NCBI RefSeq assembly: GCF_054482595.1 | Contig: NZ_CM137008.1 | Direction: 5' to 3' (one strand) | Length of the DNA stretch: 64,000 bases | In this document: positions 33,979 to 47,877 of the stretch, piece after piece | How the letters are laid out: every line of letters begins with the position of its first letter | How positions within the stretch are numbered: position 1 is the stretch's first letter | Made by a program: the position numbers and the translations under genes | Notes under the pieces: model-generated | What the model was told of the DNA's origin: nothing | Seen by the model: the letters and a program-made list of their open reading frames with translations, nothing else | The model's database searches: none

Positions 33979-34008
33979 AAGGCCCGAGTTATCGGGCCTA
34001 TTTTTTAC
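33979..34008 (+). terminator. Intrinsic terminator after uspE, abutting the ynaJ stop
   Basis: ggcccgagttatcgggcc followed by tatttttt. Confidence 0.65.
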
Positions 34009-34266
34009 TTACTGCTCTTCGCCGCCAAGGAAATAAATTCCCAACGGGATTGCCAGCAACACAGTAAAGACCAGGCTATAAACAAAAATCATCGATGACT
34101 GAATCACATACATTGATGTCGTCCACTCAGACAGCGGAATATTGTACTGTTCTATAACGCCGCCGATAGTCGCGCGAGTCACAACCGACGCCGCAATAAT
34201 GAAAACCGCCAACAAACCAAAGAGAAATTTCTTCCCTTTCGCTGACTTCAGTTTCGCCATAATCAT
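34009..34266 (-). CDS. ynaJ: Small inner-membrane protein (DUF2534)
   Basis: 85 aa; two hydrophobic helices; synteny. Confidence 0.8.
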   Translation of the reverse strand: MIMAKLKSAKGKKFLFGLLAVFIIAASVVTRATIGGVIEQYNIPLSEWTTSMYVIQSSMIFVYSLVFTVLLAIPLGIYFLGGEEQ

Positions 34267-34509
34267 GATGTAATCCTTGTGCAGACAAATTTCTTGTTAC
34301 CTAAACGTAACAATACCATGACATTTCACCGTTGTCTGCTCTGAAAACCTCACCTCTTAGCTGGATTTACAATCAACGCATTGATTAGTTAGCTAATATT
34401 GCTACTTACTTCCCTGACTATTGATGATCTGAATGAATTGTCGCGGTAAAATAGCCCCGCCAGGGGTTTCCGGCATGACGACAATTATCTGGAGGAGCCT
34501 GATAAAACA

Positions 34510-35541
34510 ATGATCGCTGAACTGTTTACAAATAATGCGCTTAATCTGGTCATTATTTTCGGTAGCTGCGCAGCATTGATTCTGATGAGCTTTTGGTTTC
34601 GCCGCGGAAATCGTAAAAGAAAAGGTTTTTTATTCCATGCGGTGCAATTTTTAATCTACACCATAATTATCAGTGCTGTTGGTAGCATTATTAATTATGT
34701 TATAGAAAACTATAAACTCAAATTTATCACCCCAGGCGTTATCGATTTTATCTGTACGTCCCTGATTGCGGTTATTCTGACGATTAAGCTATTTTTGCTG
34801 ATTAATCAGTTTGAAAAACAGCAGATTAAAAAAGGTCGCGATATCACCAGTGCGCGGATTATGTCGCGCATTATCAAAATCACCATTATTGTGGTGCTTG
34901 TTCTGCTTTATGGCGAACATTTCGGCATGAGCCTTTCTGGCTTGCTGACCTTTGGTGGTATTGGTGGTCTGGCTGTCGGTATGGCCGGTAAAGATATTCT
35001 GAGTAATTTCTTTTCCGGGATCATGCTCTATTTCGACCGTCCTTTCAGTATTGGCGACTGGATCCGTTCACCGGACAGAAATATCGAAGGTACAGTAGCG
35101 GAAATTGGCTGGCGAATTACCAAAATTACGACCTTTGATAATCGTCCATTGTACGTACCGAACTCGCTGTTTTCGTCGATCAGCGTAGAAAACCCAGGAC
35201 GAATGACCAACCGCCGCATTACCACGACCATTGGTTTACGTTATGAGGATGCGGCAAAAGTGGGCGTTATTGTCGAAGCCGTACGTGAGATGCTGAAAAA
35301 TCACCCGGCCATCGACCAGCGACAAACCTTACTGGTTTATTTCAACCAGTTTGCCGACTCGTCATTGAATATTATGGTTTATTGCTTTACCAAAACCACG
35401 GTATGGGCTGAATGGCTTGCTGCACAGCAAGACGTTTATTTGAAGATTATCGATATTGTGCAGTCACACGGCGCGGACTTTGCCTTCCCCAGCCAGACGC
35501 TGTATATGGATAACATTACACCGCAGGAACAGGGGCGCTAA
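34510..35541 (+). CDS. ynaI: MscS-family mechanosensitive channel
   Basis: 343 aa; multiple N-terminal TM helices and MscS-like C-terminal domain. Confidence 0.9.
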
Positions 35542-35591
35542 ATCAGACATCACTGGCGTTATCCACAAGGGTAACGCCAGTTCCCATCACA

Positions 35592-37205
35592 TCAATGCTT
35601 CACAATATACATAGTCCGGCTGTACGCCACATCTTCCGGGTTATTAATGGGATAACCTTTCAGCCACGGCTTGATTAATCGTCCATTGGTATATTGATAA
35701 ATTGGTGCAATCGGTGCTTGCTCCATGAGGATTTTTTCTGCCGCGTTGTAATCGGCATTACGCGCTTTAACGGTATTTTCCGTCGATGCCTGGGCCAGAA
35801 CTTTGTCGTATGCCGGATTGTTAAAGCGTGAAATATTTCCTGAATGCGTTGACGTTAATAATGTCAGGAAAGTGGAGGGTTCATTATAATCCCCCACCCA
35901 TGAGGCGCGGATAACATCAAAATTGCCGGTGTTACGGCTATCGATATAGGTTTTCCATTCCTGATTTTGCAATTTAACATCTACGCCAAGGTTCTTTTTC
36001 CACATCGATGCTACAGCAATCGCAATTTTTTGATGGTTTTCTGAAGTGTTATACAAAAGCGTCAGCTTCAGCGGTTTTCGCGGACCATAACCAGCTGCGC
36101 TCAACAAAGTTTTTGCCTGCGCATTCAGTTCTTCCTGACTCATTTGTTCAAACGGCGAAGGTTCCGGCGTAAATCCGGCGGTAACATCTGGTGTAAAATG
36201 CCACGCTGGCTTTTCGCCCGTCCCTAATACTTTTTCGGTCATCAGGCGGCGATCTATCGTCATACTTAATGCCAGACGAACGCGCTGATCTGCCGTCGGC
36301 CCTTTTTGCGTGTTAAACGCATAATAATAGGTCCCGAGCTGCGGCGGCGTATAAACCTGCCCCGGAATATCCTTCAACAGCTTCTGATACATATTTTTCG
36401 GGAAGGATTCGGTGATATCAATATCCCCCGCGAGGTAACGCTTAGTGGCTGCGGATTCCTGATTAATTGGCAGGAAGGTCACTTTTTGCAGTACCGTTTT
36501 GGCGTTATCCCAATAATGGGTATTCGGTACCACGACCAGTTTTTCATTGACTACGCGTTCTTTAAGAACATAAGCGCCATTGCCGATCAGATTTCCGGGT
36601 TTCGTCCACTCTTTACCGCTTTCTACGTTGGCTTTTTGCACCGGGAAGAAGGCAAAGTTAGCGGTTAAATTCACAAACCACGGCAACGGTTTATCAAGCT
36701 GAATTTTCAAGGTATGGGCATCAACTGCGGTGACGCCAAGCTGGTCAGGCGTAGCTTTACCATCAATAATCGCCTGTGCGTTGTTGATTCCCGCCAGCGC
36801 GGCAAACCATGCAAATGGCGATAGCGTTTTCGGGTCCACCAGACGTTGCCAGCTGTAGACAAAATCTTGCGCCGTTACCGGTGTGCCATCCGCCCATTTT
36901 GCGTTATCGCGCAGGGTAAAAGTCCAGATACGGTTGTCATTACTTTTCCACTGAGTCGCAACGCCGGGGACAATCTCCCCTTTCTCGTTCTGATTCACCA
37001 GTCCTTCAAACAGATCGCGAATGACCTGAATCTCTGGCAGGCCCACGGCTTTAGCGGGATCCAGCGACGCAGGCTCATCTTTAATGTGGCGCACCAGCTC
37101 CTGCTTCTCTGCCAGTACTGTGCCGCTCGGAACTTCTGCAGCATACGAAAGAGAAATGCTGCTGACCAACAGCGCACAACACGTGACTGAAACAGAGTGC
37201 TTCAT
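35592..37205 (-). CDS. mppA: Periplasmic murein tripeptide-binding protein (OppA paralog)
   Basis: ORF track 35592..37226; start at MKHSVSVTCCALLVSSISLSYA gives 537 aa; SBP family 5. Confidence 0.9.
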   Translation of the reverse strand: MKHSVSVTCCALLVSSISLSYAAEVPSGTVLAEKQELVRHIKDEPASLDPAKAVGLPEIQVIRDLFEGLVNQNEKGEIVPGVATQWKSNDNRIWTFTLRDNAKWADGTPVTAQDFVYSWQRLVDPKTLSPFAWFAALAGINNAQAIIDGKATPDQLGVTAVDAHTLKIQLDKPLPWFVNLTANFAFFPVQKANVESGKEWTKPGNLIGNGAYVLKERVVNEKLVVVPNTHYWDNAKTVLQKVTFLPINQESAATKRYLAGDIDITESFPKNMYQKLLKDIPGQVYTPPQLGTYYYAFNTQKGPTADQRVRLALSMTIDRRLMTEKVLGTGEKPAWHFTPDVTAGFTPEPSPFEQMSQEELNAQAKTLLSAAGYGPRKPLKLTLLYNTSENHQKIAIAVASMWKKNLGVDVKLQNQEWKTYIDSRNTGNFDVIRASWVGDYNEPSTFLTLLTSTHSGNISRFNNPAYDKVLAQASTENTVKARNADYNAAEKILMEQAPIAPIYQYTNGRLIKPWLKGYPINNPEDVAYSRTMYIVKH

Positions 37206-37262
37206 AAGTTTCCCTCTAACCGACATTAAAATTGATGCGTAATTATTTGTTTCGCCTTAAAG

Positions 37263-37298
37263 AAATGCAAACAACTTCCATCAAAAAAGTGACACAGG
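37263..37298. repeat. 36-bp conserved motif, copy A (mppA upstream)
   Basis: aaATGCAAACAACTTCCatCAAAAAAGTGAcACAgGA; second copy at 41271..41307 differs at about 3 positions. Confidence 0.6.
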
Positions 37299-37541
37299 AA
37301 GCATAAAATGTTTTATGTATCAATATATTAAATCAGATTTAGTGTAAATAATCGACGCCAAAATGCGGTAAAGCACATAGAACACCGAACACTACATTCA
37401 GGCTTCGCACGTTCAAACCAGTTTTCGGTATCATAATCAGCATCTGTCGCCATTGTACGAAGAATAAAAAATAACCAAAACGTTGATAGGAACTGAGAAT
37501 ACGTTAAGAGAGAAATTAAATTAATGTATCAGCAAGTAGTG

Positions 37542-38441
37542 CTAAACAGCACCTTTATACTTCAGCCTATCTATAAATAATGAGAATGCCGAGCCAGCAT
37601 GTCGACGGTGTGGATAGTACAGGTGATAACCGGGTAAATCTGGTGTGAATTTATCCAAAACACGTATCAGTTTTTTTTCTTTAATAGCCCGCTCAACCTG
37701 ATCATAAGGTAGATACGCCAATCCATGCCCATCAATTGCAGCATCAATGATCAGGTCTATCGTATTCAGTAAAAGCTGACCTTCCATGCGAACACGAACT
37801 TCACGTCCACCGCGTATTAATCTCCAGCGATTTGCTGTACCCGATGTGGGAAGATACAAATTAATTGCCTGATGATCTATTAATTGTGACACTGACGTTG
37901 GAACACTTCGGCGAGAAAAATAATCCGGTGAGCCAACAATAGCCATTGGTATATCTGGCCCGATTCGAATGGCGATCATATCTTTATCCATCTCCCCACC
38001 CAGACGGACGCCTGCATCAAAACGTTCAGAAACGACATCGGTCAAACCATAATCAATGGTGAGCTGAATATCAATTTCAGGATGCGATTTCAGGAATGTG
38101 CGCATTGCTGGTAACAATATCGTTTTTGCTGCATGTTCTACAGTAGTAATACGTATTGTCCCGGATGGGCGGTTCTGCAGCTCGCTCAGGGATGCCAGGG
38201 CTGAATCTATGTCATGCAACATAGGGCCAAGAACAGACAAAAGATGCTCGCCCGCTTCAGTTGGAACAACGCTGCGCGTGGTTCGCGTCAGAAGCCGCAA
38301 TCCCAATCGTTCTTCTATACGACGCACTATCTGGCTTAAAGCTGACTGCGCCATGCTCAGGCGGGCTGCTGCACGAGTGAAGCTACGCTCCTCTGCAACG
38401 ACGACAAACGCCATCAGATCAGCGATTTCTTCACGCTTCAT
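37542..38441 (-). CDS. pgrR: LysR-family regulator PgrR
   Basis: 299 aa; N-terminal HTH; divergent from ycjY. Confidence 0.85.
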   Translation of the reverse strand: MKREEIADLMAFVVVAEERSFTRAAARLSMAQSALSQIVRRIEERLGLRLLTRTTRSVVPTEAGEHLLSVLGPMLHDIDSALASLSELQNRPSGTIRITTVEHAAKTILLPAMRTFLKSHPEIDIQLTIDYGLTDVVSERFDAGVRLGGEMDKDMIAIRIGPDIPMAIVGSPDYFSRRSVPTSVSQLIDHQAINLYLPTSGTANRWRLIRGGREVRVRMEGQLLLNTIDLIIDAAIDGHGLAYLPYDQVERAIKEKKLIRVLDKFTPDLPGYHLYYPHRRHAGSAFSLFIDRLKYKGAV

Positions 38442-38578
38442 TCAGTATCTCCATGCAATCTATTAATCATTTAAATGATAGGTCTAATCATGATTTTGGG
38501 TCTAATCAACTTAATGATCAATATCTATAGTGATATCACCAACCGTTAAAACGAACCGACAACTCCATGAGGAACGGA

Positions 38579-39499
38579 ATGATGAATAATAAAGTCAGCT
38601 TCACTAACAGCAATAATCCAACCATCTCTTTGTCTGCAGTGATCTATTTCCCTCCAAAATTTGATGAAACCCGTCAGTATCAGGCAATTGTGGTATCTCA
38701 CCCAGGTGGGGGCGTTAAAGAACAAACGGCCGGAACCTATGCCAAAAAACTGGCGGAAAAGGGATTTGTCACTATTGCTTATGACGCATCTTATCAAGGT
38801 GAAAGTGGCGGCGAGCCGCGTCAGTTAGAAAACCCATACATTCGTACTGAAGACATCAGTGCCGTGATTGATTACCTGACAACGCTTTCTTATGTCGACA
38901 ATACCCGAATTGGTGCGATGGGAATTTGTGCCGGTGCAGGATATACAGCCAATGCTGCAATTCAGGATCGCCGCATCAAGGCCATCGGTACCGTTAGTGC
39001 GGTCAATATTGGTTCGATGTTCCGTAATGGTTGGGAAAACAATGTGAAATCTATTGATGCCCTGCCATACGTTGAAGCGGGTTCAAACGCCCGAACCAGC
39101 GATATTAGCAGCGGAGAATATGCCGTTATGCCACTGGCACCAATGAAGGAGTCCGATGCGCCGAACGAAGAACTGCGTCAGGCCTGGGAGTATTACCACA
39201 CCCCTCGCGCGCAGTATCCAACAGCACCGGGTTACGCTACTTTGCGCAGCCTTAACCAGATTATTACCTATGATGCTTACCATATGGCGGAAGTGTACCT
39301 GACTCAGCCGATGCAGATTGTGGCGGGCAGCCAGGCAGGGAGCAAATGGATGAGTGACGACCTGTACGATCGGGCATCAAGCCAGGATAAACGCTATCAC
39401 ATTGTTGAAGGCGCAAACCATATGGATCTTTATGACGGCAAAGCCTATGTGGCTGAAGCAATTTCAGTATTAGCTCCGTTCTTTGAGGAAACTCTGTAA
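38579..39499 (+). CDS. ycjY: Alpha/beta hydrolase with Cys nucleophile motif (dienelactone-hydrolase-like)
   Basis: ORF track 38567..39499; start at MMNNK (GAGG 6 nt upstream) gives 306 aa; GICAG nucleophile-elbow motif. Confidence 0.85.
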   Translation: MMNNKVSFTNSNNPTISLSAVIYFPPKFDETRQYQAIVVSHPGGGVKEQTAGTYAKKLAEKGFVTIAYDASYQGESGGEPRQLENPYIRTEDISAVIDYLTTLSYVDNTRIGAMGICAGAGYTANAAIQDRRIKAIGTVSAVNIGSMFRNGWENNVKSIDALPYVEAGSNARTSDISSGEYAVMPLAPMKESDAPNEELRQAWEYYHTPRAQYPTAPGYATLRSLNQIITYDAYHMAEVYLTQPMQIVAGSQAGSKWMSDDLYDRASSQDKRYHIVEGANHMDLYDGKAYVAEAISVLAPFFEETL

Positions 39500-40431
39500 T
39501 GAAACATATTCAAATCCGCAATAGTGATATGGCCTGGCATATTGCTGCCAATATTCAGTTTCCACCAAATTTTGATGAGTCAAAACAGTATCCGGCGATT
39601 ATCAGCGTCCATCCTTTTGGCAGTTGTAAGGAGCAGACGTCTGGCAATATCTATGGCAAAGCATTGGCTGAAAAAGGCTATCTCGTTCTCGCTTATGACG
39701 CCAGTTTCCAGGGAGAATCTGGTGGGGAGCCTCGCTGGATAGAAGATCCGACACAGCGCGTAGAGGATATTAGCCGTGTTATCGATTATGCAGTAACTCT
39801 GCCATATGTTAATGCTGAACGTATTGGCGTGCTGGGAGTGTGTGGGGGTGGTGGCTATGCCATTAATGCCGCGCTGACAGAAAAACGAATTAAAGCAGTA
39901 GTGAGTATTACGGGTGTTAATATCGGGCGTCTTTTTCGGGAAGGTTTCAGCAATTACGATCCGATTGGCGCATTGAATGCAATGGCGTCGCAACGAACCA
40001 AAGAGGCTCGTGGTGGAGAATTACAGATCAACGAATTACTTCCCGCCAGCCTGGATGCAGCAAAATCCCATGGACTGACCGAACGCGATGTTTATGAAGC
40101 AACTGACTACTATAAAACACCACGCGGGCAACAACCGGGAGGTGCGACAAAAATGTTGTTCTCACATGCACAGAAAACGCTGGCCTGGGATGCCTTCGCA
40201 TTTACTGAAGTGTTACTGACTCAGCCGGTGATGGTAGTAGTTGGTGAAAAAGTCGGTGCCTTCGGTGCTTATCGTGATGGACTGGAAGTCTATGGCCGGG
40301 CGATGGTTTCGCAGGATCGTCAGTTAGTTTCATTACCCGATTTCTCACATTATGAACTGTATGACAAACCGGAAGCAGTTCAGGAGACGCTGGAAAAAGT
40401 TATTCCTTTTTTCAACACCCATCTGGGATAA
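39499..40431 (+). CDS. ymjD: Second alpha/beta hydrolase, paralog of ycjY (full-length counterpart of K-12 remnant ymjD)
   Basis: 310 aa; alignable with YcjY along its length (shared FPP.FDE..QY, LAYDAS.QGESGGEPR, VIDY); GVCGG motif; start overlaps ycjY stop. Confidence 0.7.
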   Translation: MKHIQIRNSDMAWHIAANIQFPPNFDESKQYPAIISVHPFGSCKEQTSGNIYGKALAEKGYLVLAYDASFQGESGGEPRWIEDPTQRVEDISRVIDYAVTLPYVNAERIGVLGVCGGGGYAINAALTEKRIKAVVSITGVNIGRLFREGFSNYDPIGALNAMASQRTKEARGGELQINELLPASLDAAKSHGLTERDVYEATDYYKTPRGQQPGGATKMLFSHAQKTLAWDAFAFTEVLLTQPVMVVVGEKVGAFGAYRDGLEVYGRAMVSQDRQLVSLPDFSHYELYDKPEAVQETLEKVIPFFNTHLG

Positions 40432-40448
40432 GTTTCATGAGAAATATT

Positions 40449-41087
40449 ATGAAAAATGTACTGATTCTTGGTGCTGGCGGTCAGATAGCCCGCCATGTGA
40501 TTAATCAACTGGCAGATAAACAAACCATTAAACAAACTTTATTTGCCCGTCAGCCAGCAAAAATCCACAAACCCTATCCAACTAATAGCAAGATTATTAT
40601 GGGAGATGTACTGAATCATGCAGCACTGAAGCAGGCCATGCAGGGACAGGACGTTGTGTATGCCAACCTTACGGGGGAAGATTTAGATATTCAGGCAAAT
40701 TCAGTGATCGCTGCGATGAAAGCCTGTGATGTTAAACGTCTGATCTTTGTTCTTTCCCTCGGTATTTATGATGAAGTTCCAGGAAAATTTGGCGAATGGA
40801 ATAATGCAGTTATTGGTGAGCCCCTAAAACCATTCCGCAGGGCTGCGGATGCAATTGAGGCTTCTGGACTGGAATATACAATTCTTCGCCCTGCCTGGCT
40901 GACTGATGAAGATATTATTGATTATGAGCTTACCTCACGCAATGAACCATTCAAAGGTACGATCGTATCACGTAAGAGTGTCGCAGCATTAATCACAGAT
41001 ATCATCGATAAACCTGAGAAACACATTGGTGATAATATAGGTATCAATCAACCCGTGACTGATGGTGACAAGCCATTATTCATTTAA
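40449..41087 (+). CDS. ymjC: NAD(P)-binding Rossmann-fold protein (NmrA/atypical SDR-like), intact
   Basis: ORF track 40437..41087; MKNVLILGAGGQIARH N-terminal dinucleotide-binding motif; 212 aa from this start. Confidence 0.7.
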   Translation: MKNVLILGAGGQIARHVINQLADKQTIKQTLFARQPAKIHKPYPTNSKIIMGDVLNHAALKQAMQGQDVVYANLTGEDLDIQANSVIAAMKACDVKRLIFVLSLGIYDEVPGKFGEWNNAVIGEPLKPFRRAADAIEASGLEYTILRPAWLTDEDIIDYELTSRNEPFKGTIVSRKSVAALITDIIDKPEKHIGDNIGINQPVTDGDKPLFI

Positions 41088-41270
41088 ATCAATTACATAG
41101 TTACCATCGTAATGTACTATGTGCAGTACGATTTATTAAACTTATTAAGGTGAACTGATCAATCCGATGCGATTAACATGTGTAGAACCAGTAAGAATAA
41201 AATACGCCATGTATATAACATTACGACTTACATCTAAGTCAGCATAATTCTAATATCTGCACATCAATAA

Positions 41271-41307
41271 AAATGCAAACAACTTCCGGCAAAAAAGTGA
41301 TACAAGA
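41271..41307. repeat. 36-bp conserved motif, copy B (mpaA upstream)
   Basis: aaATGCAAACAACTTCCggCAAAAAAGTGAtACAaGA; about 90-125 nt upstream of the mpaA start. Confidence 0.6.
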
Positions 41308-41395
41308 TCGATGACATAGCGTTGAAGAAAAGGATTTGATAATCCGCAAAATTTGCACAACACTGCCTGTAATACTTCCTGAACCAGAGACGATC

Positions 41396-42124
41396 ATGAC
41401 CGTAAACCGCCCACGCGCCGAACGCGGCGCATTTCCGCCCGGAACAGAACATTACGGACGTTCATTATTGGGCGCGCCGTTAATCTGGTTTCCGGCCACT
41501 GCAGCCAGTCGCGAAAGTGGTTTGATTCTGGCTGGCACTCACGGTGATGAAAACTCTTCGGTCGTCACGCTCTCCTGTGCTCTGCGGACTTTGACACCTT
41601 CTTTGCGCCGCCATCATGTGGTGCTGTGTGTGAATCCTGACGGCTGCCAGCTGGGGTTACGGGCCAATGCTAATGGTGTGGATTTAAACAGAAACTTTCC
41701 GGCGGCGAACTGGAAGGAAGGTGAAACGGTTTATCGCTGGAACAGCGCCGCTGAAGAACGTGATGTCGTATTACTGACAGGTGACAAACCTGGCTCCGAA
41801 CCTGAAACCCAGGCGCTGTGCCAGCTTATACACCGCATTCAACCTGCCTGGGTGGTCTCATTCCACGATCCACTGGCCTGTATTGAAGATCCCAGACACA
41901 GCGAATTAGGCGAATGGCTGGCCCAGGCGTTTGAATTGCCTCTGGTAACCAGCGTCGGTTATGAAACGCCTGGCTCTTTCGGCAGTTGGTGTGCAGATCT
42001 CAACTTGCATTGCATCACCGCAGAGTTTCCGCCCATCTCCTCCGACGAAGCCAGCGAAAAATATCTCTTTGCGATGGCAAACTTGCTGCGCTGGCATCCT
42101 AAAGATGCAATTCGCCCGTCGTGA
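41396..42124 (+). CDS. mpaA: Murein peptide amidase A (M14 gamma-D-Glu-mDAP amidase)
   Basis: ORF track 41336..42124; start at MTVNRPRAERG gives 242 aa; HGDE zinc-ligand motif. Confidence 0.85.
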   Translation: MTVNRPRAERGAFPPGTEHYGRSLLGAPLIWFPATAASRESGLILAGTHGDENSSVVTLSCALRTLTPSLRRHHVVLCVNPDGCQLGLRANANGVDLNRNFPAANWKEGETVYRWNSAAEERDVVLLTGDKPGSEPETQALCQLIHRIQPAWVVSFHDPLACIEDPRHSELGEWLAQAFELPLVTSVGYETPGSFGSWCADLNLHCITAEFPPISSDEASEKYLFAMANLLRWHPKDAIRPS

Positions 42125-43064
42125 ACTGAAGCGCCGGTTCCACATCTACCGCCAGCCAGGTCGGTCCGTCAAGATCGGCGAAACTGACCTGCGGCACCAG
42201 CGGTAAAGCGGCGCTAATGGCACGAGAGGTACACAACATGCAGCCCAGCATCAGACTGAAACCTTGTGCACGCGCTTCAGTCGCCAGCGCCAGCGCTTCC
42301 GTCAGACCACCGGTTTTATCGAGCTTAATGTTAACCATCTCATAGCGCCCTTTCAGCGCCTTCAGATTGCTACGTGTATGACAACTCTCATCAGCACAAA
42401 TCGGCAACGGATGAATAAAATTCTCCAGCGCCGCATCGTCCTGCGCAGGAAGGGGTTGTTCAAGCATCGCAACGCCTAAATCCGCCAATAGCTGGCAACG
42501 CGCCGCCAACCCTTCTGCACGCCAGGATTCATTTGCATCAACGATCAGCGTCGCATCGGGCACAGCTGTGCGAATTGCCACCATCCGCTCACTAATAAGA
42601 TGGTTATCCAGCTTCACTTTCAGTAATTTCGCGCCTGCCTGCCAGAGTGTTGATGCACTATTGGCCATCTGATCAGGCGTACCGATGACTACCGTCTGTG
42701 CAGTGATAACTGTCTCGGGAAGCGTTATGCCGATCAAATCAGCCAGCGATTGCTGCTGTTTTCGCGCGGCCAGATCCCACAATGCACAATCCAGCGCATT
42801 ACGTGCTGCGCCGGCAGGGAGAATTTTTTGCAACTCCTCCCGTGTCAGCCCTTTCTCTAATTGCGACACGACGCTCATAATTTGCGCCATTACCGAGGCA
42901 TCACTTTCTCCATAACGCGGATACGGCGTGCATTCGCCGGTGCCTTTAATACCCTCTTCTTCCAGTTCAACCACCACCACGCGCGCTTCACTGCGACTTC
43001 CCCGGGCAATCACAAACGGGGTATGTAAGGGCCAGGCTTCCTCAAATACCTTAACGGTTCTCAT
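42099..43064 (-). CDS. ycjG: L-Ala-D/L-Glu epimerase (enolase superfamily)
   Basis: ORF track 42099..43106; start at MRTVKVFEEAW gives 321 aa; 3' end overlaps mpaA 3' end (convergent). Confidence 0.9.
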   Translation of the reverse strand: MRTVKVFEEAWPLHTPFVIARGSRSEARVVVVELEEEGIKGTGECTPYPRYGESDASVMAQIMSVVSQLEKGLTREELQKILPAGAARNALDCALWDLAARKQQQSLADLIGITLPETVITAQTVVIGTPDQMANSASTLWQAGAKLLKVKLDNHLISERMVAIRTAVPDATLIVDANESWRAEGLAARCQLLADLGVAMLEQPLPAQDDAALENFIHPLPICADESCHTRSNLKALKGRYEMVNIKLDKTGGLTEALALATEARAQGFSLMLGCMLCTSRAISAALPLVPQVSFADLDGPTWLAVDVEPALQFTTGELHL

Positions 43065-43182
43065 CTTTACTCCTTGTTGTCGCGGTGGTCTGCGGATTAA
43101 GCGCAAATAGCGTTTGCTGTGTTATTGACAGTTAGCATAAACTAGGTGTGACGTTAACTATATGTAAACAGGAAAGATAATC

Positions 43183-43689
43183 ATGTCACAAACCGTTCAT
43201 TTCCAGGGCAACCCGGTTACAGTCGCCAATTCCATCCCGCAGGCGGGTAGCAAAGCGCAGACTTTTACTCTCGTAGCAAAAGATCTGTCTGACGTCACCC
43301 TCGGTCAGTTTGCGGGTAAACGCAAAGTGCTGAACATTTTCCCGAGTATTGATACCGGAGTTTGCGCCGCATCAGTACGTAAGTTTAACCAACTGGCAAC
43401 CGAGATCGACAACACCGTTGTGCTGTGTATCTCTGCCGATCTGCCGTTCGCCCAGTCTCGTTTCTGCGGCGCAGAAGGTCTGAACAACGTTATCACCCTC
43501 TCCACTTTCCGTAACGCTGAATTCCTGCAAGCCTACGGTGTGGCAATTGCTGATGGCCCACTGAAAGGTCTGGCAGCGCGTGCCGTTGTGGTTATTGATG
43601 AAAATGACAATGTGATTTTCAGCCAGCTGGTGGATGAAATCACCACCGAGCCGGATTACGAAGCAGCTCTGGCGGTACTGAAAGCATAA
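43183..43689 (+). CDS. tpx: Thiol peroxidase
   Basis: 168 aa; peroxidatic Cys in DTGVCA. Confidence 0.95.
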
Positions 43690-43693
43690 GTTA

Positions 43694-43726
43694 ATATGCC
43701 TGATGGTGTTGCACCATCAGGCATAT
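43694..43726. terminator. Palindromic hairpin between convergent tpx and tyrR
   Basis: atatgcctgatggtg ttgc accatcaggcatat; no strong U-tract. Confidence 0.45.
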
Positions 43727-43732
43727 TCGCGC

Positions 43733-45274
43733 TTACTCTTCGTTCTTCTTCTGGCTTAAGCCATATTCCCGCAACTTATTGGCAATCGCGGTATGTGAAA
43801 CGCCGAGACGTTTTGCCAGTTTGCGCGTGCTGGGATAATTGCGATAAAGCTGGGTTAATACCGAGCGTTCAAAACGGCTGGTGATTTCATCCAGCGAACC
43901 TTCCATCGCATCTTCGCCCACGGCTACCGTTGCGGCGTCATAATCCGGCAACAAAATATCCTGTGGACGCAGCTCATAACCGTCCAGTTGTGTCAGTGCG
44001 CGATAGATAGCGTTCTTTAACTGCCGCACATTTCCCGGCCACGCATAACGCGTAAGTACAGTATTCAGGTCAGCGGCCAGTTTCGGACGCGGCACGCCCT
44101 GCTCGTCGGCAAAGCGGGCGACGAACAGCTCAGTTAACGGCATGATGTCCTGCGGACAGTCACGTAGCGGCGGCAGATTGAGCGTCAACACGTTCAGACG
44201 ATAATAGAGATCTTCACGGAACACGCCTTTTTGCACCAGTTCGACCAGATTCTTCTGCGTAGCGCAAATCACCCGCACATCGACATGCACCTCATGGTCT
44301 TCGCCAACCCGACGGAAAGTGCCATCATTAAGGAAACGCAGTAATTTCGCCTGCATCCGTGGTGACATCTCACCTATTTCATCCAACAGCACCGAACCAC
44401 CGTTCGCCTGCTCAAAGAATCCTTTCTTCCCTTCCGGAGCATGACCAAACAGTTCACTCTCGACCGCATCTTCCGGTATAGACGCACAGTTCAGCGCCAG
44501 GTAAGGTTTGCCCGCTCTGGGGCTTGCCTGATGGCAGGCGTAGGCAAAGAGATCTTTACCTGTACCTGTGTCACCCGTAATCAGCAGCGGCGCGCTTAGC
44601 ATCGCCAGTTTCTGCGCCTGTTCGACAACATGCTTCATTTTCGGGCTGACGGCGACAATTTGACTGAAGGCGCTGACGTCCTGGGCGGCGACATTTTGCA
44701 ACTGGCGGCCCATACGAATCGTTGATCGCAACATCACCACCGCACCGGTCAGGACGTGTTGATCATTTTCATCCTGAAGATAAACAGGCGTAATCTCCAT
44801 CAGGAAATTCTGCCCATTAATAACGACATGCTCGTTATGGGAATCTTGCGGTTCGCTTTCCAGCCAACGTAAAAAATTAAAGCCGTTAATCAATTGTGCG
44901 GCGGTATGGTTGCGCAGGCGATCCAATTTTTGCGCAAAAAGCTGACAGCTCGCCGGGTTCGCCATATCCACTTTGCTTTTCATATCGACAGAGAGCACAG
45001 GTTCGGGCAACGCCTCCAGTAACGCGCTCAACGCCAGATGCTCACGTTCGGAAGGCATCCACGGGACAGTACGCACATCGGTAACACCTGCAATACGGCG
45101 TATTTCGGCCATCAGACTGCTGAAACTCTCAAACTCCAGTTCAGCAAAATTGAGGTAGATTCGCCCAATGGGATCAATCTCAATACCGCGTAAATCAATG
45201 CCTCTTAGCACGAGTAGATCGAGTAATTCGCGGGTCAGACCGAGTCGGTCTTCACAAAAGACTTCCAGACGCAT
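43733..45274 (-). CDS. tyrR: Aromatic amino acid regulator TyrR
   Basis: ORF track 43733..45301; start at MRLEVFCEDRLGLTRELLD gives 513 aa; central AAA+ domain (GDTGTGKD), C-terminal HTH. Confidence 0.95.
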   Translation of the reverse strand: MRLEVFCEDRLGLTRELLDLLVLRGIDLRGIEIDPIGRIYLNFAELEFESFSSLMAEIRRIAGVTDVRTVPWMPSEREHLALSALLEALPEPVLSVDMKSKVDMANPASCQLFAQKLDRLRNHTAAQLINGFNFLRWLESEPQDSHNEHVVINGQNFLMEITPVYLQDENDQHVLTGAVVMLRSTIRMGRQLQNVAAQDVSAFSQIVAVSPKMKHVVEQAQKLAMLSAPLLITGDTGTGKDLFAYACHQASPRAGKPYLALNCASIPEDAVESELFGHAPEGKKGFFEQANGGSVLLDEIGEMSPRMQAKLLRFLNDGTFRRVGEDHEVHVDVRVICATQKNLVELVQKGVFREDLYYRLNVLTLNLPPLRDCPQDIMPLTELFVARFADEQGVPRPKLAADLNTVLTRYAWPGNVRQLKNAIYRALTQLDGYELRPQDILLPDYDAATVAVGEDAMEGSLDEITSRFERSVLTQLYRNYPSTRKLAKRLGVSHTAIANKLREYGLSQKKNEE

Positions 45275-45344
45275 GGGAACCTTCACCTGAAAAAAGAACA
45301 ATTAATATGATGATATGACACTATTTGGATAGCAGGAAGGTTTC

Positions 45345-45362
45345 TGTCAACAATCATTGACA
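45345..45362. promoter_or_regulatory. TyrR-box-like palindrome upstream of tyrR
   Basis: tgtcaa-caatca-ttgaca fits TGTAAA-N6-TTTACA with two mismatches. Confidence 0.5.
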
Positions 45363-45421
45363 CAAAGACGGAAAAACGGGCACTTCGGCGTAAAGATATC
45401 CGGTCAGCACCCGATATTGCA

Positions 45422-46483
45422 TTATTTTTCGCTGGGCGTTTTGCCTTTTTGCAGCGTTTCTTTCACCTGACCGATAAGCTGACGACGGAAATCCCCGAGG
45501 CGAGGTTTGTCATCGTCAATCCACGGCAGCGGGCGGCAAAGCTCCATAGCTTTAATCCCGAGTCGTGCCGTCAGAAGTCCAGCACCAATTCCCTGAGCTG
45601 CGCGGGTAGACAAACGAGCAGCGAGATCTTGCGACATCCAGTCCATCCCCACTTCGCGCACCAGTTCGCTGGCTCCGGCAAAAGCGATATTCAGCAATAC
45701 CAGCTTAAACAGACGCAAACGGCTGTAATACCCCAGTTCAATGCCATACAGCGTGGCGATGCGATTAATTAAACGCAGATTGCGCCAGGCGATAAACGCC
45801 ATATCGACCAACGCCAGCGGGCTGACCGCAATCATCAACGTTGATTCCGCCGCCGAACGGCTGATTTCGCGCCGCGCCTGGGCATCTAAAACTGGCTGGA
45901 CCAAATGCGCATACAAACTGACCACTTCACGGTCGTTTTGCGTTTCATGGATTGAGGCATACCAGCGTTGCAGCGCTGGATGAGACTGATCAATACCCGC
46001 CTGCTGCGCCAGTTTTTCGCAAAATGCGCGGCCTTTGCCCGTGCCGTGGCTGTGCAACAAATCGCGCGCTTCGTCGCGTTCATGGGCGCGCTGTCGCAAG
46101 CGCCATAAGCGCCGCCACTCTGTTACCACAGAACCTACGCCAGCGCCGATAATCAATGCCCCAGCGGCACATCCACCCAGCGCCACCCAGTCCTGAGTTT
46201 GCCAGGCATTCATTGTCCACTGTACACCCTGCCCGACAACGCTTGCGCCAAACAGAGCCAGCCCGCCCATCACCATTTTGCGCCACAGGCTGCGTTTCGG
46301 ACGTAACGCTGCATCCATTACCGCTTCAACTTGCCCCTCTTCTTCAGGCGCTTCATCGAGCGTGGCCGGGGCAAAATTTTGCGCCTGATTTTCGTCAAAG
46401 GTCTGCTGCGCCCTGAATTTTGGATTCTGATCGACCTCCAGCGGACCGTCGAAATCAATACGTGGTTTTAACGGTTCGGTCAT
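45422..46483 (-). CDS. ycjF: DUF697-family inner membrane protein
   Basis: 353 aa; hydrophobic segments; start overlaps ycjX stop (ATGA). Confidence 0.85.
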
Positions 46484-47877
46484 CGCAATTTATCTCCTAT
46501 TAAAAATTCAAGCGCGGCATCAAGACGAATATGCGGCAGCGGTTTGTCGACATCCATCACCTGCGGGCGAAACGCTTCAAACTGGAACCCTTGCTTGTCC
46601 CAGAACGCCTGACCGGGCAAACGCGCAGGAACTTCACCGGGATAAACGGTGAGTGGCGCACCATCGCTGAGCCGGTTACCGCGCAATGCCGGAATTTTCT
46701 CGCCGTTGACGTCAATAATGCCGCTGGTGGTCGCCTGCACCGAGGCCAGCCCCAGGCAATCCATACTAATCCCTTCAAACGCCGCATTTTGCCAGGCATC
46801 CTGAATCAGTTGTTGCAGTAATGAAACCATATTGGCGTGCTGATCGATGGTCACATGGTCCGCTTTAGTGGCAGCAAACAATAGCTTATCGATAACCGGC
46901 GAAAACAAACGCCGGAACAAGGTACGCTGCCCGTAGTGGAAACTTTGCATCAGCTGCGTCAGTGCCAGACGCATATCATTAAATGCCTGTGGCCCACTGT
47001 TGAGAGGTTGCAGGCAATCAACCAGCACAATCTGGCGGTCAAAGCGCAGAAAATGATTCTTATAGAACCCCTTCACCACCTTCTCGCAGTAATAATTAAA
47101 CCGCTCGCGCAGCATTCCGGCATTGGTGTGCTTATCGGCCTGCGCCAGTTTGGACTCGCCCCAGGCATCGACATCCGGCCACGGGAAGAATTGCAGCGCG
47201 GGCGCACCTGCCATATCTCCCGGCAAGACAAAGCGCCCAGGCTGAATAAAGTGCAGCCCCTGCTGTTTACAGTGGTGGAGATAATCGGTCCACGCGGCGG
47301 CAATGTCTGCCAGCCGGTTTTCGTCGGCAGGCGCTAGCGGGTCCAGCCCTTCGCACATCATTCGCCATTTGACCGACCATTCGCCGCGCTGACCATTGAG
47401 TAAGCCCGTCATCTGGCGTGACCAGCTTAAATAGTCCTGCGCCAGCATCGGCAGGTCGAGCAACCATTCGCCGGGATAATCCACAATCTCCAGATACAGC
47501 GTGGAGGTGTCCTTGAAGTGGCGTAGCAGCGAATCGTTCGATTTAAAACGTAGCGCCAGGCGGATTTCACTGACGCCGCGCGTTGGCGTCGGCCAGGCGG
47601 GAGGATCGCCATATAACTGCGCCAGTCCTTCATCATATGTGAAGCGCGGAATGCCAAAGTCACGCTGAGGAATGCGTTTTACGCCCAGCAGGCGCTCTTC
47701 ACGCACCGCGCTTAACAGCGGCAAGCGTGCTCCGGCGTGAATATTGAGCAACTGATTGACCATCGCAGTGATAAACGCTGTTTTGCCGCTGCGGCTTAGT
47801 CCGGTTACGGCGAGGCGCAGATGTCTGTCGACACCCCGATTCACCAGCGCATTAAGTTCATTTTTAAGTCGCTTCAT
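46480..47877 (-). CDS. ycjX: DUF463-family P-loop NTPase
   Basis: ORF track 46480..47958; start at [19 protein letters not shown] gives 465 aa; Walker A GLSRSGKT. Confidence 0.85.

Follow-up and report, generated by a model that had tools for sequence, protein, structure and literature searches.

Dienelactone hydrolases (DLH; PF01738) of the ClcD/TfdE type are followed by a maleylacetate reductase and stand under the LysR regulators ClcR/TfdR. UilS and AidA-type N-acyl-homoserine lactonases are DLH-like alpha/beta hydrolases acting on lactones (PMC11633161). The ycjY-ymjD-ymjC-mpaA operon of Escherichia coli K-12 is regulated by PgrR (Shimada et al. 2013, as quoted in PMC5934670 and PMC10505187), and YcjY and PgrR are cited, largely from position, as functions of peptidoglycan degradation or recycling (e.g. 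PMC12711010, where YcjY is given as '(putative) peptidoglycan degradation', and PMC5934670). We analysed the same locus in a stretch of 64,000 nucleotides (nt) of E. coli DNA (NCBI RefSeq assembly GCF_054482595.1, contig NZ_CM137008.1; hereafter the window), of which positions 38400-41400 are 100% identical to E. coli KSC207. The window shares the regulator, ycjY and the operator region with the K-12 operon; K-12 has only remnants of a second hydrolase gene (hyd2, remnant ymjD) and of a reductase gene (remnant ymjC), both of which are intact in the window. We find that the segment from pgrR to the reductase gene (the cassette; ycjY is also called hyd1) is a foreign insert of ~4.0 kb in the divergent promoter region of mppA and mpaA, with its own regulator and operator, and that it was acquired by an ancestor of E. 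coli with duplication of 37 nt of the target.

A foreign insert between mppA and mpaA

The loci of relatives were reached through MpaA orthologues. mppA and mpaA point directly away from each other across ~185 bp in Citrobacter, Enterobacter mori and Klebsiella oxytoca, and ycjG, tpx, tyrR and ycjF/ycjX then come in the E. coli order; the mppA-mpaA arrangement of Serratia liquefaciens is similar. All four relatives keep the synteny of mppA, mpaA, ycjG and tpx without the cassette genes: no homologues of PgrR, YcjY, hyd2 or the reductase were found by tblastn in their mppA-mpaA loci (for the first three, within 6 kb), and the syntenic MppA orthologues of Citrobacter, Enterobacter, Klebsiella and Serratia are 73-95% identical. 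Judged from this synteny, the ancestral enterobacterial order is mppA divergent from mpaA-ycjG, with the cassette not included.

The E. coli locus carries the traces of an insertion into such a spacer. A repeat search found two 37-nt direct repeats, identical at 33 of 37 positions and spaced 4008 bp apart, which bracket exactly the extra genes; by alignment, the same element is single-copy in the undisturbed spacers of the relatives. The left flank in E. coli aligns to the mppA-proximal half of the relatives' spacer and the right flank to the mpaA-proximal half, and the E. coli pieces add up to nearly the length of the Citrobacter spacer (94 + 125 - 37 = 182 bp versus 184 bp). The GC content is 0.445 for the insert, 0.31-0.34 for its flanks, and 0.54-0.55 for mpaA/ycjG. 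The segment thus has the features of a horizontally acquired insert, i.e. absence from the relatives' site, direct repeats of the target and deviant composition. The features of the locus are as follows (window positions; the evidence is given in brackets).

35592-37205, minus strand: mppA, murein tripeptide binding protein; native, left of the insertion site (open reading frame (ORF) and RefSeq annotation of identical loci)
37263-37299, plus strand: left copy of the 37-nt direct repeat (AAATGCAAACAACTTCC..CAAAAAAGTGA.ACA.GA), a duplicated target of the mppA-mpaA spacer (repeat search and spacer alignment)
37328-37453, minus strand: pseudogene remnant of queH (epoxyqueuosine reductase) in the AT-rich left insert flank (fragment annotation by the Prokaryotic Genome Annotation Pipeline (PGAP) in strain ARS-C301, and ORF)
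37542-38441, minus strand: pgrR (ycjZ), LysR-type regulator of 299 aa (NCBIfam LysR-family matches and RefSeq name)
38462-38482, no strand: inverted-repeat box ATTAATCATTTAAATGATAGG (ATCA-N6-TGAT), then GTCTAAT, in the pgrR-ycjY intergenic region; probable PgrR operator (cross-taxon alignment)
38579-39499, plus strand: ycjY (hyd1), alpha/beta hydrolase of 306 aa with Cys nucleophile; the ORF runs from 38567 and the RefSeq start is 38579 (PDB 5xb6)
39499-40431, plus strand: hyd2, paralogous Cys alpha/beta hydrolase of 310 aa, K-12 remnant ymjD (ORF, PDB and Pfam matches, alignment)
40449-41087, plus strand: NmrA-like, predicted NAD(P)H-binding reductase, an atypical short-chain dehydrogenase/reductase (SDR), 212 aa from the annotated start, ORF from 40437, K-12 remnant ymjC (Pfam, PDB 3qvo)
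41088-41270, no strand: AT-rich right insert flank, GC 0.31; cassette similarity with other genera stops at 41093-41158 (composition)
41271-41307, plus strand: right copy of the 37-nt direct repeat, where the native mpaA upstream region restarts (repeat search and spacer alignment)
41396-42124, plus strand: mpaA, murein tripeptide amidase (M14) (NCBIfam NF007897 and synteny in relatives)
42099-43064, minus strand: ycjG, L-Ala-D/L-Glu epimerase (NCBIfam NF011708 and synteny in relatives)

The initial annotation had described pgrR, two hydrolases, an NAD(P)-binding protein, mpaA and ycjG as intact in 37542-43064, with the LysR gene divergent from a four-gene array, ycjG convergent and mppA nearby; the ORF list, which we examined over 34000-47000, agrees with it in coordinates and in gene order. 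The ATG of hyd2 overlaps the ycjY stop (ATGA). MpaA scores 478 bits against NCBIfam NF007897 (cut-off 157) and YcjG 676 bits against NF011708 (cut-off 343), both equivalog families, and ycjG is followed downstream by tpx, tyrR, ycjF and ycjX. We note that the convergent mpaA and ycjG overlap at their 3' ends by 26 bp (42099-42124), and that the same overlap is seen in Citrobacter. The queH remnant, in a left flank of GC 0.34, is probably a leftover of the donor's neighboring gene; it was found in all E. coli alleles fetched, which argues for one old insertion that predates the divergence of the alleles.

The cassette in other bacteria and its erosion in E. coli

A scan with one genome per species gave 299 hyd2 relatives. 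The neighborhood counts cover the best 80 loci, all in other species, with neighbors searched by tblastn (E<=1e-10, any coverage) within 10 kb of hyd2. These 80 loci (58-88% identity in hyd2) come from Gamma-, Alpha- and Betaproteobacteria, Actinobacteria, Bacteroidota and Nitrospira. Not one of them showed MpaA, YcjG, MppA or Tpx in this 10-kb range. An adjacent YcjY orthologue (at least 60% identity) is found in 57 of the 80, a LysR gene within 2.5 kb in 49, and a reductase within 10 kb in 18, and 11 loci have hyd2, YcjY, LysR and reductase together. In all the other places sampled, the cassette occurs independently of mpaA, ycjG and mppA.

Conservation of hyd2 is unusually high, with 84-86% identity to the proteins of Serratia and Klebsiella variicola and ~80% to those of Alphaproteobacteria. 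The arrangement of a LysR gene divergent from hyd1-hyd2-SDR recurs in Afipia carboxidovorans and in Serratia marcescens, where two SDRs, a Flavodoxin_4 protein and an old yellow enzyme (OYE) come after it; Sphingobium yanoikuyae has LysR and the hydrolase pair without the reductase, and here alone an integrase adjoins. The four-gene unit is also carried by conjugative IncF-type plasmids of K. variicola and Klebsiella aerogenes, in unrelated surroundings, and by an Agrobacterium plasmid. Nucleotide similarity between E. coli and the other copies (~79%) extends from the pgrR stop to just beyond the reductase stop, and no further. Clustering of the ORFs in the hyd2 neighborhoods gave no other neighbor family in more than 12 of the 80 loci (some spurious antisense ORFs in high-GC genomes were ignored). 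The minor recurrent neighbors are an AraC-type regulator, Flavodoxin_4-like proteins, aldehyde dehydrogenase, family III CoA-transferase, OYE and SDRs. In marine Gammaproteobacteria (Pseudoalteromonas, Vibrio, Alteromonas and related genera), the partners of hyd1-hyd2 are an AraC-type regulator and a membrane-anchored Flavodoxin_4-like protein, which take the place of the LysR regulator and the NmrA-like reductase there.

Comparison of E. coli with the plasmid copy of Klebsiella gave a synonymous divergence (dS) of 1.4-2.4 and a ratio of nonsynonymous to synonymous divergence (dN/dS) of 0.03-0.06 across all four genes (0.03 for ycjY); between E. coli and Afipia the synonymous sites are saturated. 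The high dS together with the low dN/dS indicates that the transfers are old and that the proteins are strongly constrained.

Within E. coli (5426 complete genomes), the region 38400-41400 was matched in 5409 genomes, and over at least 80% of its length in only 1280. DNA of hyd2 is found in 1282 genomes, O157:H7 strains included, and the 3' part of the reductase gene in 2942. By aligning the window to K-12 and to strain FDAARGOS_1256 we defined three alleles: allele A (the window) is the complete segment; allele B has lost ~39557-40448 and thereby hyd2, with the reductase still intact; and allele C (K-12) has the allele B deletion and also lacks 40588-41269, which truncates the reductase. Their rough shares are 24% for A, 30% for B, and 45% for C or worse. 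The alignment bears out the earlier suggestion that ymjD and ymjC of K-12 are decayed genes: they are deletion remnants of a full-length Cys hydrolase paralogue and an NmrA-like reductase, and ymjC presence has been reported to differ among phylogroups (PMC9602453). The second K-12 deletion (40588-41269) has a 4-nt AATA microhomology at its junction and comes to within 1-2 bp of the insert's right edge; since it stops at this edge, exactly the native mpaA upstream region is left over. Other losses were seen in strain A21, in which the pgrR-ycjY junction is gone, and in strain NH-21, in which the insertion sequence IS1 stands in place of the whole segment with mppA, mpaA and ycjG kept. mppA, mpaA and ycjG are still present in every eroded locus examined. 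Among E. coli copies dN/dS is 0.15-0.30 (few differences), and the ORFs are intact in the sampled allele-A genomes. The complete allele is no rarity and has its database entries: in RefSeq its genes carry the names 'alpha/beta hydrolase' (twice) and 'SDR family oxidoreductase'.

Parallel decay is found outside E. coli: in Citrobacter sp. Awk 4 the reductase gene has an internal deletion equivalent to window positions 40512-40916, and the cassette copy of Serratia sp. PL17 is without the reductase. Some E. coli carry further hyd2-like paralogues, with ~62% identity in records of 4.9 Mb that are filed as plasmids but are evidently chromosomes, and with ~52% identity on plasmids of 122-134 kb.

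Regulator, enzymes and proposed function

In other taxa, PgrR orthologues of 58-87% identity are encoded divergently from the two hydrolase genes; E. coli and Afipia share 74% identity in this regulator. The orthologues have the Pfam domains HTH_1 and LysR_substrate, and with the divergent orientation and a conserved box this is the configuration of a LysR-type regulator. In the alignment of the intergenic regions, the columns of the ATCA-N6-TGAT box and of GTCTAAT are invariant among E. coli, the Klebsiella plasmids, Serratia, Afipia, Sphingobium and Agrobacterium. Because regulator and box are conserved with the cassette in other classes, PgrR is taken as the cassette's own regulator, with the box at 38462-38482 as its probable operator. 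In agreement with this operator, genomic systematic evolution of ligands by exponential enrichment (SELEX) gave ycjY/ycjZ as a PgrR site (PMC5934670). Negative autoregulation of pgrR has been published as well (PMC10505187).

Two further observations concern this region. A study in Shigella lists a predicted PhoP box, aGGTcTAatcatGaTTTAg, upstream of ycjY (PMC5775216); in the window this sequence (38482-38515) overlaps GGTCTAATCA elements, one of which is conserved in the cassette copies of other classes, and could thus belong to the PgrR site instead. The LysR-box region at 38456-38476 is alike in 18 of 21 nt to the 3' end of the reductase gene (41069-41089); we considered a second, weak PgrR site there and judged the 21-nt similarity a probable chance match. 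An Rfam scan gave a sub-threshold chance match to Histone3 and nothing else.

No terminator-like site was found on the plus strand between the reductase and mpaA (41088-41395) in a promoter/terminator scan, whose output was at the level expected from shuffled sequence and which we used solely for this missing terminator. Transcription from the PgrR promoter could hence run on into mpaA, which retains 125 bp of its native upstream region.

The two hydrolases are paralogues (39% identity in a global alignment of YcjY and hyd2). By phmmer, hyd2 matches the structure of YcjY (PDB 5xb6; E 3.9e-67, residues 12-307) and that of PA2218 (PDB 2hdw; E 3.8e-41); a solved structure of hyd2 itself is lacking. 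C117, D261 and H281 are invariant in 43 aligned sequences of the YcjY group (E. coli and 42 orthologues), as are C115, D260 and H284 in 64 aligned sequences of the hyd2 group (E. coli reference included). In both, the Cys lies in a GxCxG nucleophile elbow and the Asp lies 20-24 residues ahead of the C-terminal His, a spacing from which we infer that the invariant Asp is the catalytic acid. The Pfam matches are partial (Peptidase_S15, Abhydrolase_1, Hydrolase_4 and DLH); Peptidase_S15 reaches E 2e-10, and DLH (PF01738) is weaker (E 3e-7, residues 28-139, model positions 10-129 of 217). For hyd2 we built an AlphaFold2 model from 14 sequences. Foldseek of this model gave 5xb6 as the top match (E 1e-23, template modelling (TM) score 0.71) and PA2218 next, and further matches to a Chloroflexus hydrolase, PET46, the thioesterase DcsB, GrgF, lipases and feruloyl esterases; S9 peptidase domains ranked below these. 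The pair belongs to the alpha/beta hydrolases with a Cys nucleophile and not to the isochorismatase-type 'cysteine hydrolases'. The modelled fold, esterase- or thioesterase-like by its matches beyond YcjY and PA2218, would favor ester, thioester or lactone substrates, and the Cys-His-Asp set would give chemistry of the dienelactone hydrolase type.

The literature searched on YcjY, ymjC/ymjD, PgrR and murein tripeptide assigns no biochemical function or substrate to these proteins, and the literature searched on the structures 5xb6, 2hdw and 3qvo holds no function or publication for them. The GxCxG motif was formerly suggested to make YcjY a polymerase of complexed poly-3-hydroxybutyrate (cPHB) (PMC3709699), for which the gene context gives no support. 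The reductase matches Pfam NAD_binding_10 (PF13460) over the whole model (E 3.6e-54), has a glycine-rich LGAGGQIA motif at residues 7-14, and is ~98% identical to PDB 3qvo (an NmrA-family protein of Shigella flexneri); by these matches, the 212-aa protein is an NmrA-like (NAD_binding_10) atypical SDR predicted to bind NAD(P)H.

Taken together, we favor (with a probability of about 0.6) a self-contained, horizontally moved cassette, a PgrR-controlled hydrolysis and reduction module for a small molecule, whose link to mpaA is positional. An ancestor of E. coli took up the LysR/hydrolase/hydrolase/reductase cassette into the mppA-mpaA divergent promoter region. In the mechanism that we propose, PgrR would sense a small molecule, upon which the operon is de-repressed; the two cytoplasmic Cys hydrolases, possibly jointly, would open an ester, lactone or thioester bond; and the reductase would then reduce the substrate or the product. 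The module would be catabolic or detoxifying, for a substrate other than murein peptides. With no obvious terminator in the insert, PgrR-controlled transcripts could enter mpaA, and such read-through would explain both the published 'ycjY-ymjDC-mpaA operon' and the 'peptidoglycan recycling' label of PgrR. In E. coli the cassette is now eroding. If a mobile cassette did land in the mppA-mpaA promoter region, the peptidoglycan annotation of YcjY and PgrR needs re-examining, and the insertion would also explain the K-12 'pseudogenes' at this position. What the cassette analysis offers is the correction of a guilt-by-association annotation and a pair of Cys hydrolases that is mobile and conserved, with a range from Enterobacteria to Actinobacteria and Bacteroidota, rather than new murein-peptide chemistry.

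A bolder form of this proposal is tentative, and we think of it as a possibility worth naming: LysR/hyd1/hyd2(/reductase) may form a pathway that is widely exchanged, has gone unrecognised and serves one specific small molecule (an unsaturated lactone or ester, perhaps), with the strongly constrained hydrolases working as a pair and PgrR sensing that compound and not a peptidoglycan fragment. The name 'peptidoglycan recycling regulator' would then be a by-product of an insertion that placed mpaA behind a foreign promoter.

Several points weigh against the favored explanation. There is no integrase or transposase between 37300 and 41270 in the ORF lists. The PgrR regulon as listed in PMC5934670 comprises ycjY-ymjDC-mpaA, ycjG and ycjXF-tyrR, and over-expression of ycjY leads to filamentation (PMC3614548), which would fit a connection with the cell wall. 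The hydrolase chemistry is read from motifs and fold alone; the hyd2 model is of moderate quality (predicted local distance difference test (pLDDT) 65, with the lid at 142-238 poor), and its fold is also like the catalytic domains of S9/S15 peptidases, which leaves room for amidase or peptidase activity. The sole evidence for read-through into mpaA is the missing consensus terminator.

Some of these points could speak for co-option, i.e. a foreign cassette that is now tied to murein-peptide use, for example with PgrR timing mpaA/ycjG or with YcjY acting on a cell-wall-derived compound. Such a tie would fit the open path from the reductase to mpaA, the K-12 operon and regulon assignments as given in PMC5934670, the confirmed negative autoregulation of pgrR (PMC10505187), and the common alleles that keep pgrR and ycjY despite the loss of hyd2 and the reductase. 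However, mpaA has kept the 125 bp of native upstream region, some strains have pgrR and ycjY deleted or replaced by IS1 with mpaA intact, and a biochemical link is not known; we consider co-option unlikely. We give somewhat less credit to neutral cargo, a slowly decaying insert without selected function in E. coli of which the window allele is the least decayed state. The independent deletions (allele B, allele C, strain A21), the IS1 replacement in NH-21, the retention of hyd2 in only 24% of genomes, and the parallel decay in Citrobacter sp. Awk 4 and Serratia sp. PL17 are what such cargo would leave behind, but the intact ORFs of the sampled allele-A genomes with a within-species dN/dS of 0.15-0.30 (few sites), the very strong constraint between genera, and the persistence of the allele in large lineages including O157:H7 make this improbable.

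The least supported option is the functional hypothesis of the initial annotation, that the hydrolases and the reductase belonged from the outset to a longer murein-peptide cluster, catalysing steps beyond MpaA/YcjG and lost in K-12: it can draw on the position of the genes between mppA and mpaA in the direction of mpaA, on the regulon reported with ycjY-ymjDC-mpaA and ycjG (as listed in PMC5934670), on the S9/S15-like fold and on the filamentation (PMC3614548), but it is contradicted by the cassette-free spacers of the relatives, the 37-nt target duplication that bounds the insert, the 0 of 80 loci that tie the cassette to mpaA, ycjG or mppA elsewhere, the copies on conjugative Klebsiella plasmids, the recurrent partners elsewhere (redox enzymes, none of them peptide-handling), and the E. 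coli lineages that drop hyd2 and the reductase while the eroded loci examined keep mppA, mpaA and ycjG.

Comparison with known systems

With the dienelactone hydrolase system the cassette shares a Cys nucleophile in a GxCxG elbow with His and Asp, an NAD(P)H-dependent reduction step and a divergent LysR gene. It differs in that the DLH match is partial and weak, the hydrolases are ~310 aa with a large lid and come as two paralogues, the reductase is a NAD_binding_10 atypical SDR and not an iron-type maleylacetate reductase, and ring-cleavage genes are not nearby. The cassette is formally like the pair of dienelactone hydrolase and maleylacetate reductase, an analogy that does not imply homology of the pathways. 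As for lactonases of the UilS/AidA type, the UilS family (NF047920) is the best named NCBIfam family for the hydrolases and was rejected, with YcjY at 84.2 bits and hyd2 at 75.3 bits being far below the cut-off of 400; quorum-sensing genes are not nearby either. Among structural-genomics entries, 5xb6 is hyd1 itself, 3qvo is the reductase (~98%) and 2hdw is a hyd2 homologue.

The genes of MppA, MpaA and YcjG are the physical neighbors of the cassette in E. coli, perhaps with co-transcription of mpaA; the MppA/MpaA/YcjG cluster is older, vertically inherited, and cassette-free in Citrobacter, Enterobacter, Klebsiella and Serratia. The published 'peptidoglycan recycling' label of the K-12 operon rests on the adjacency of mpaA and on co-regulation, and the insertion explains this adjacency.

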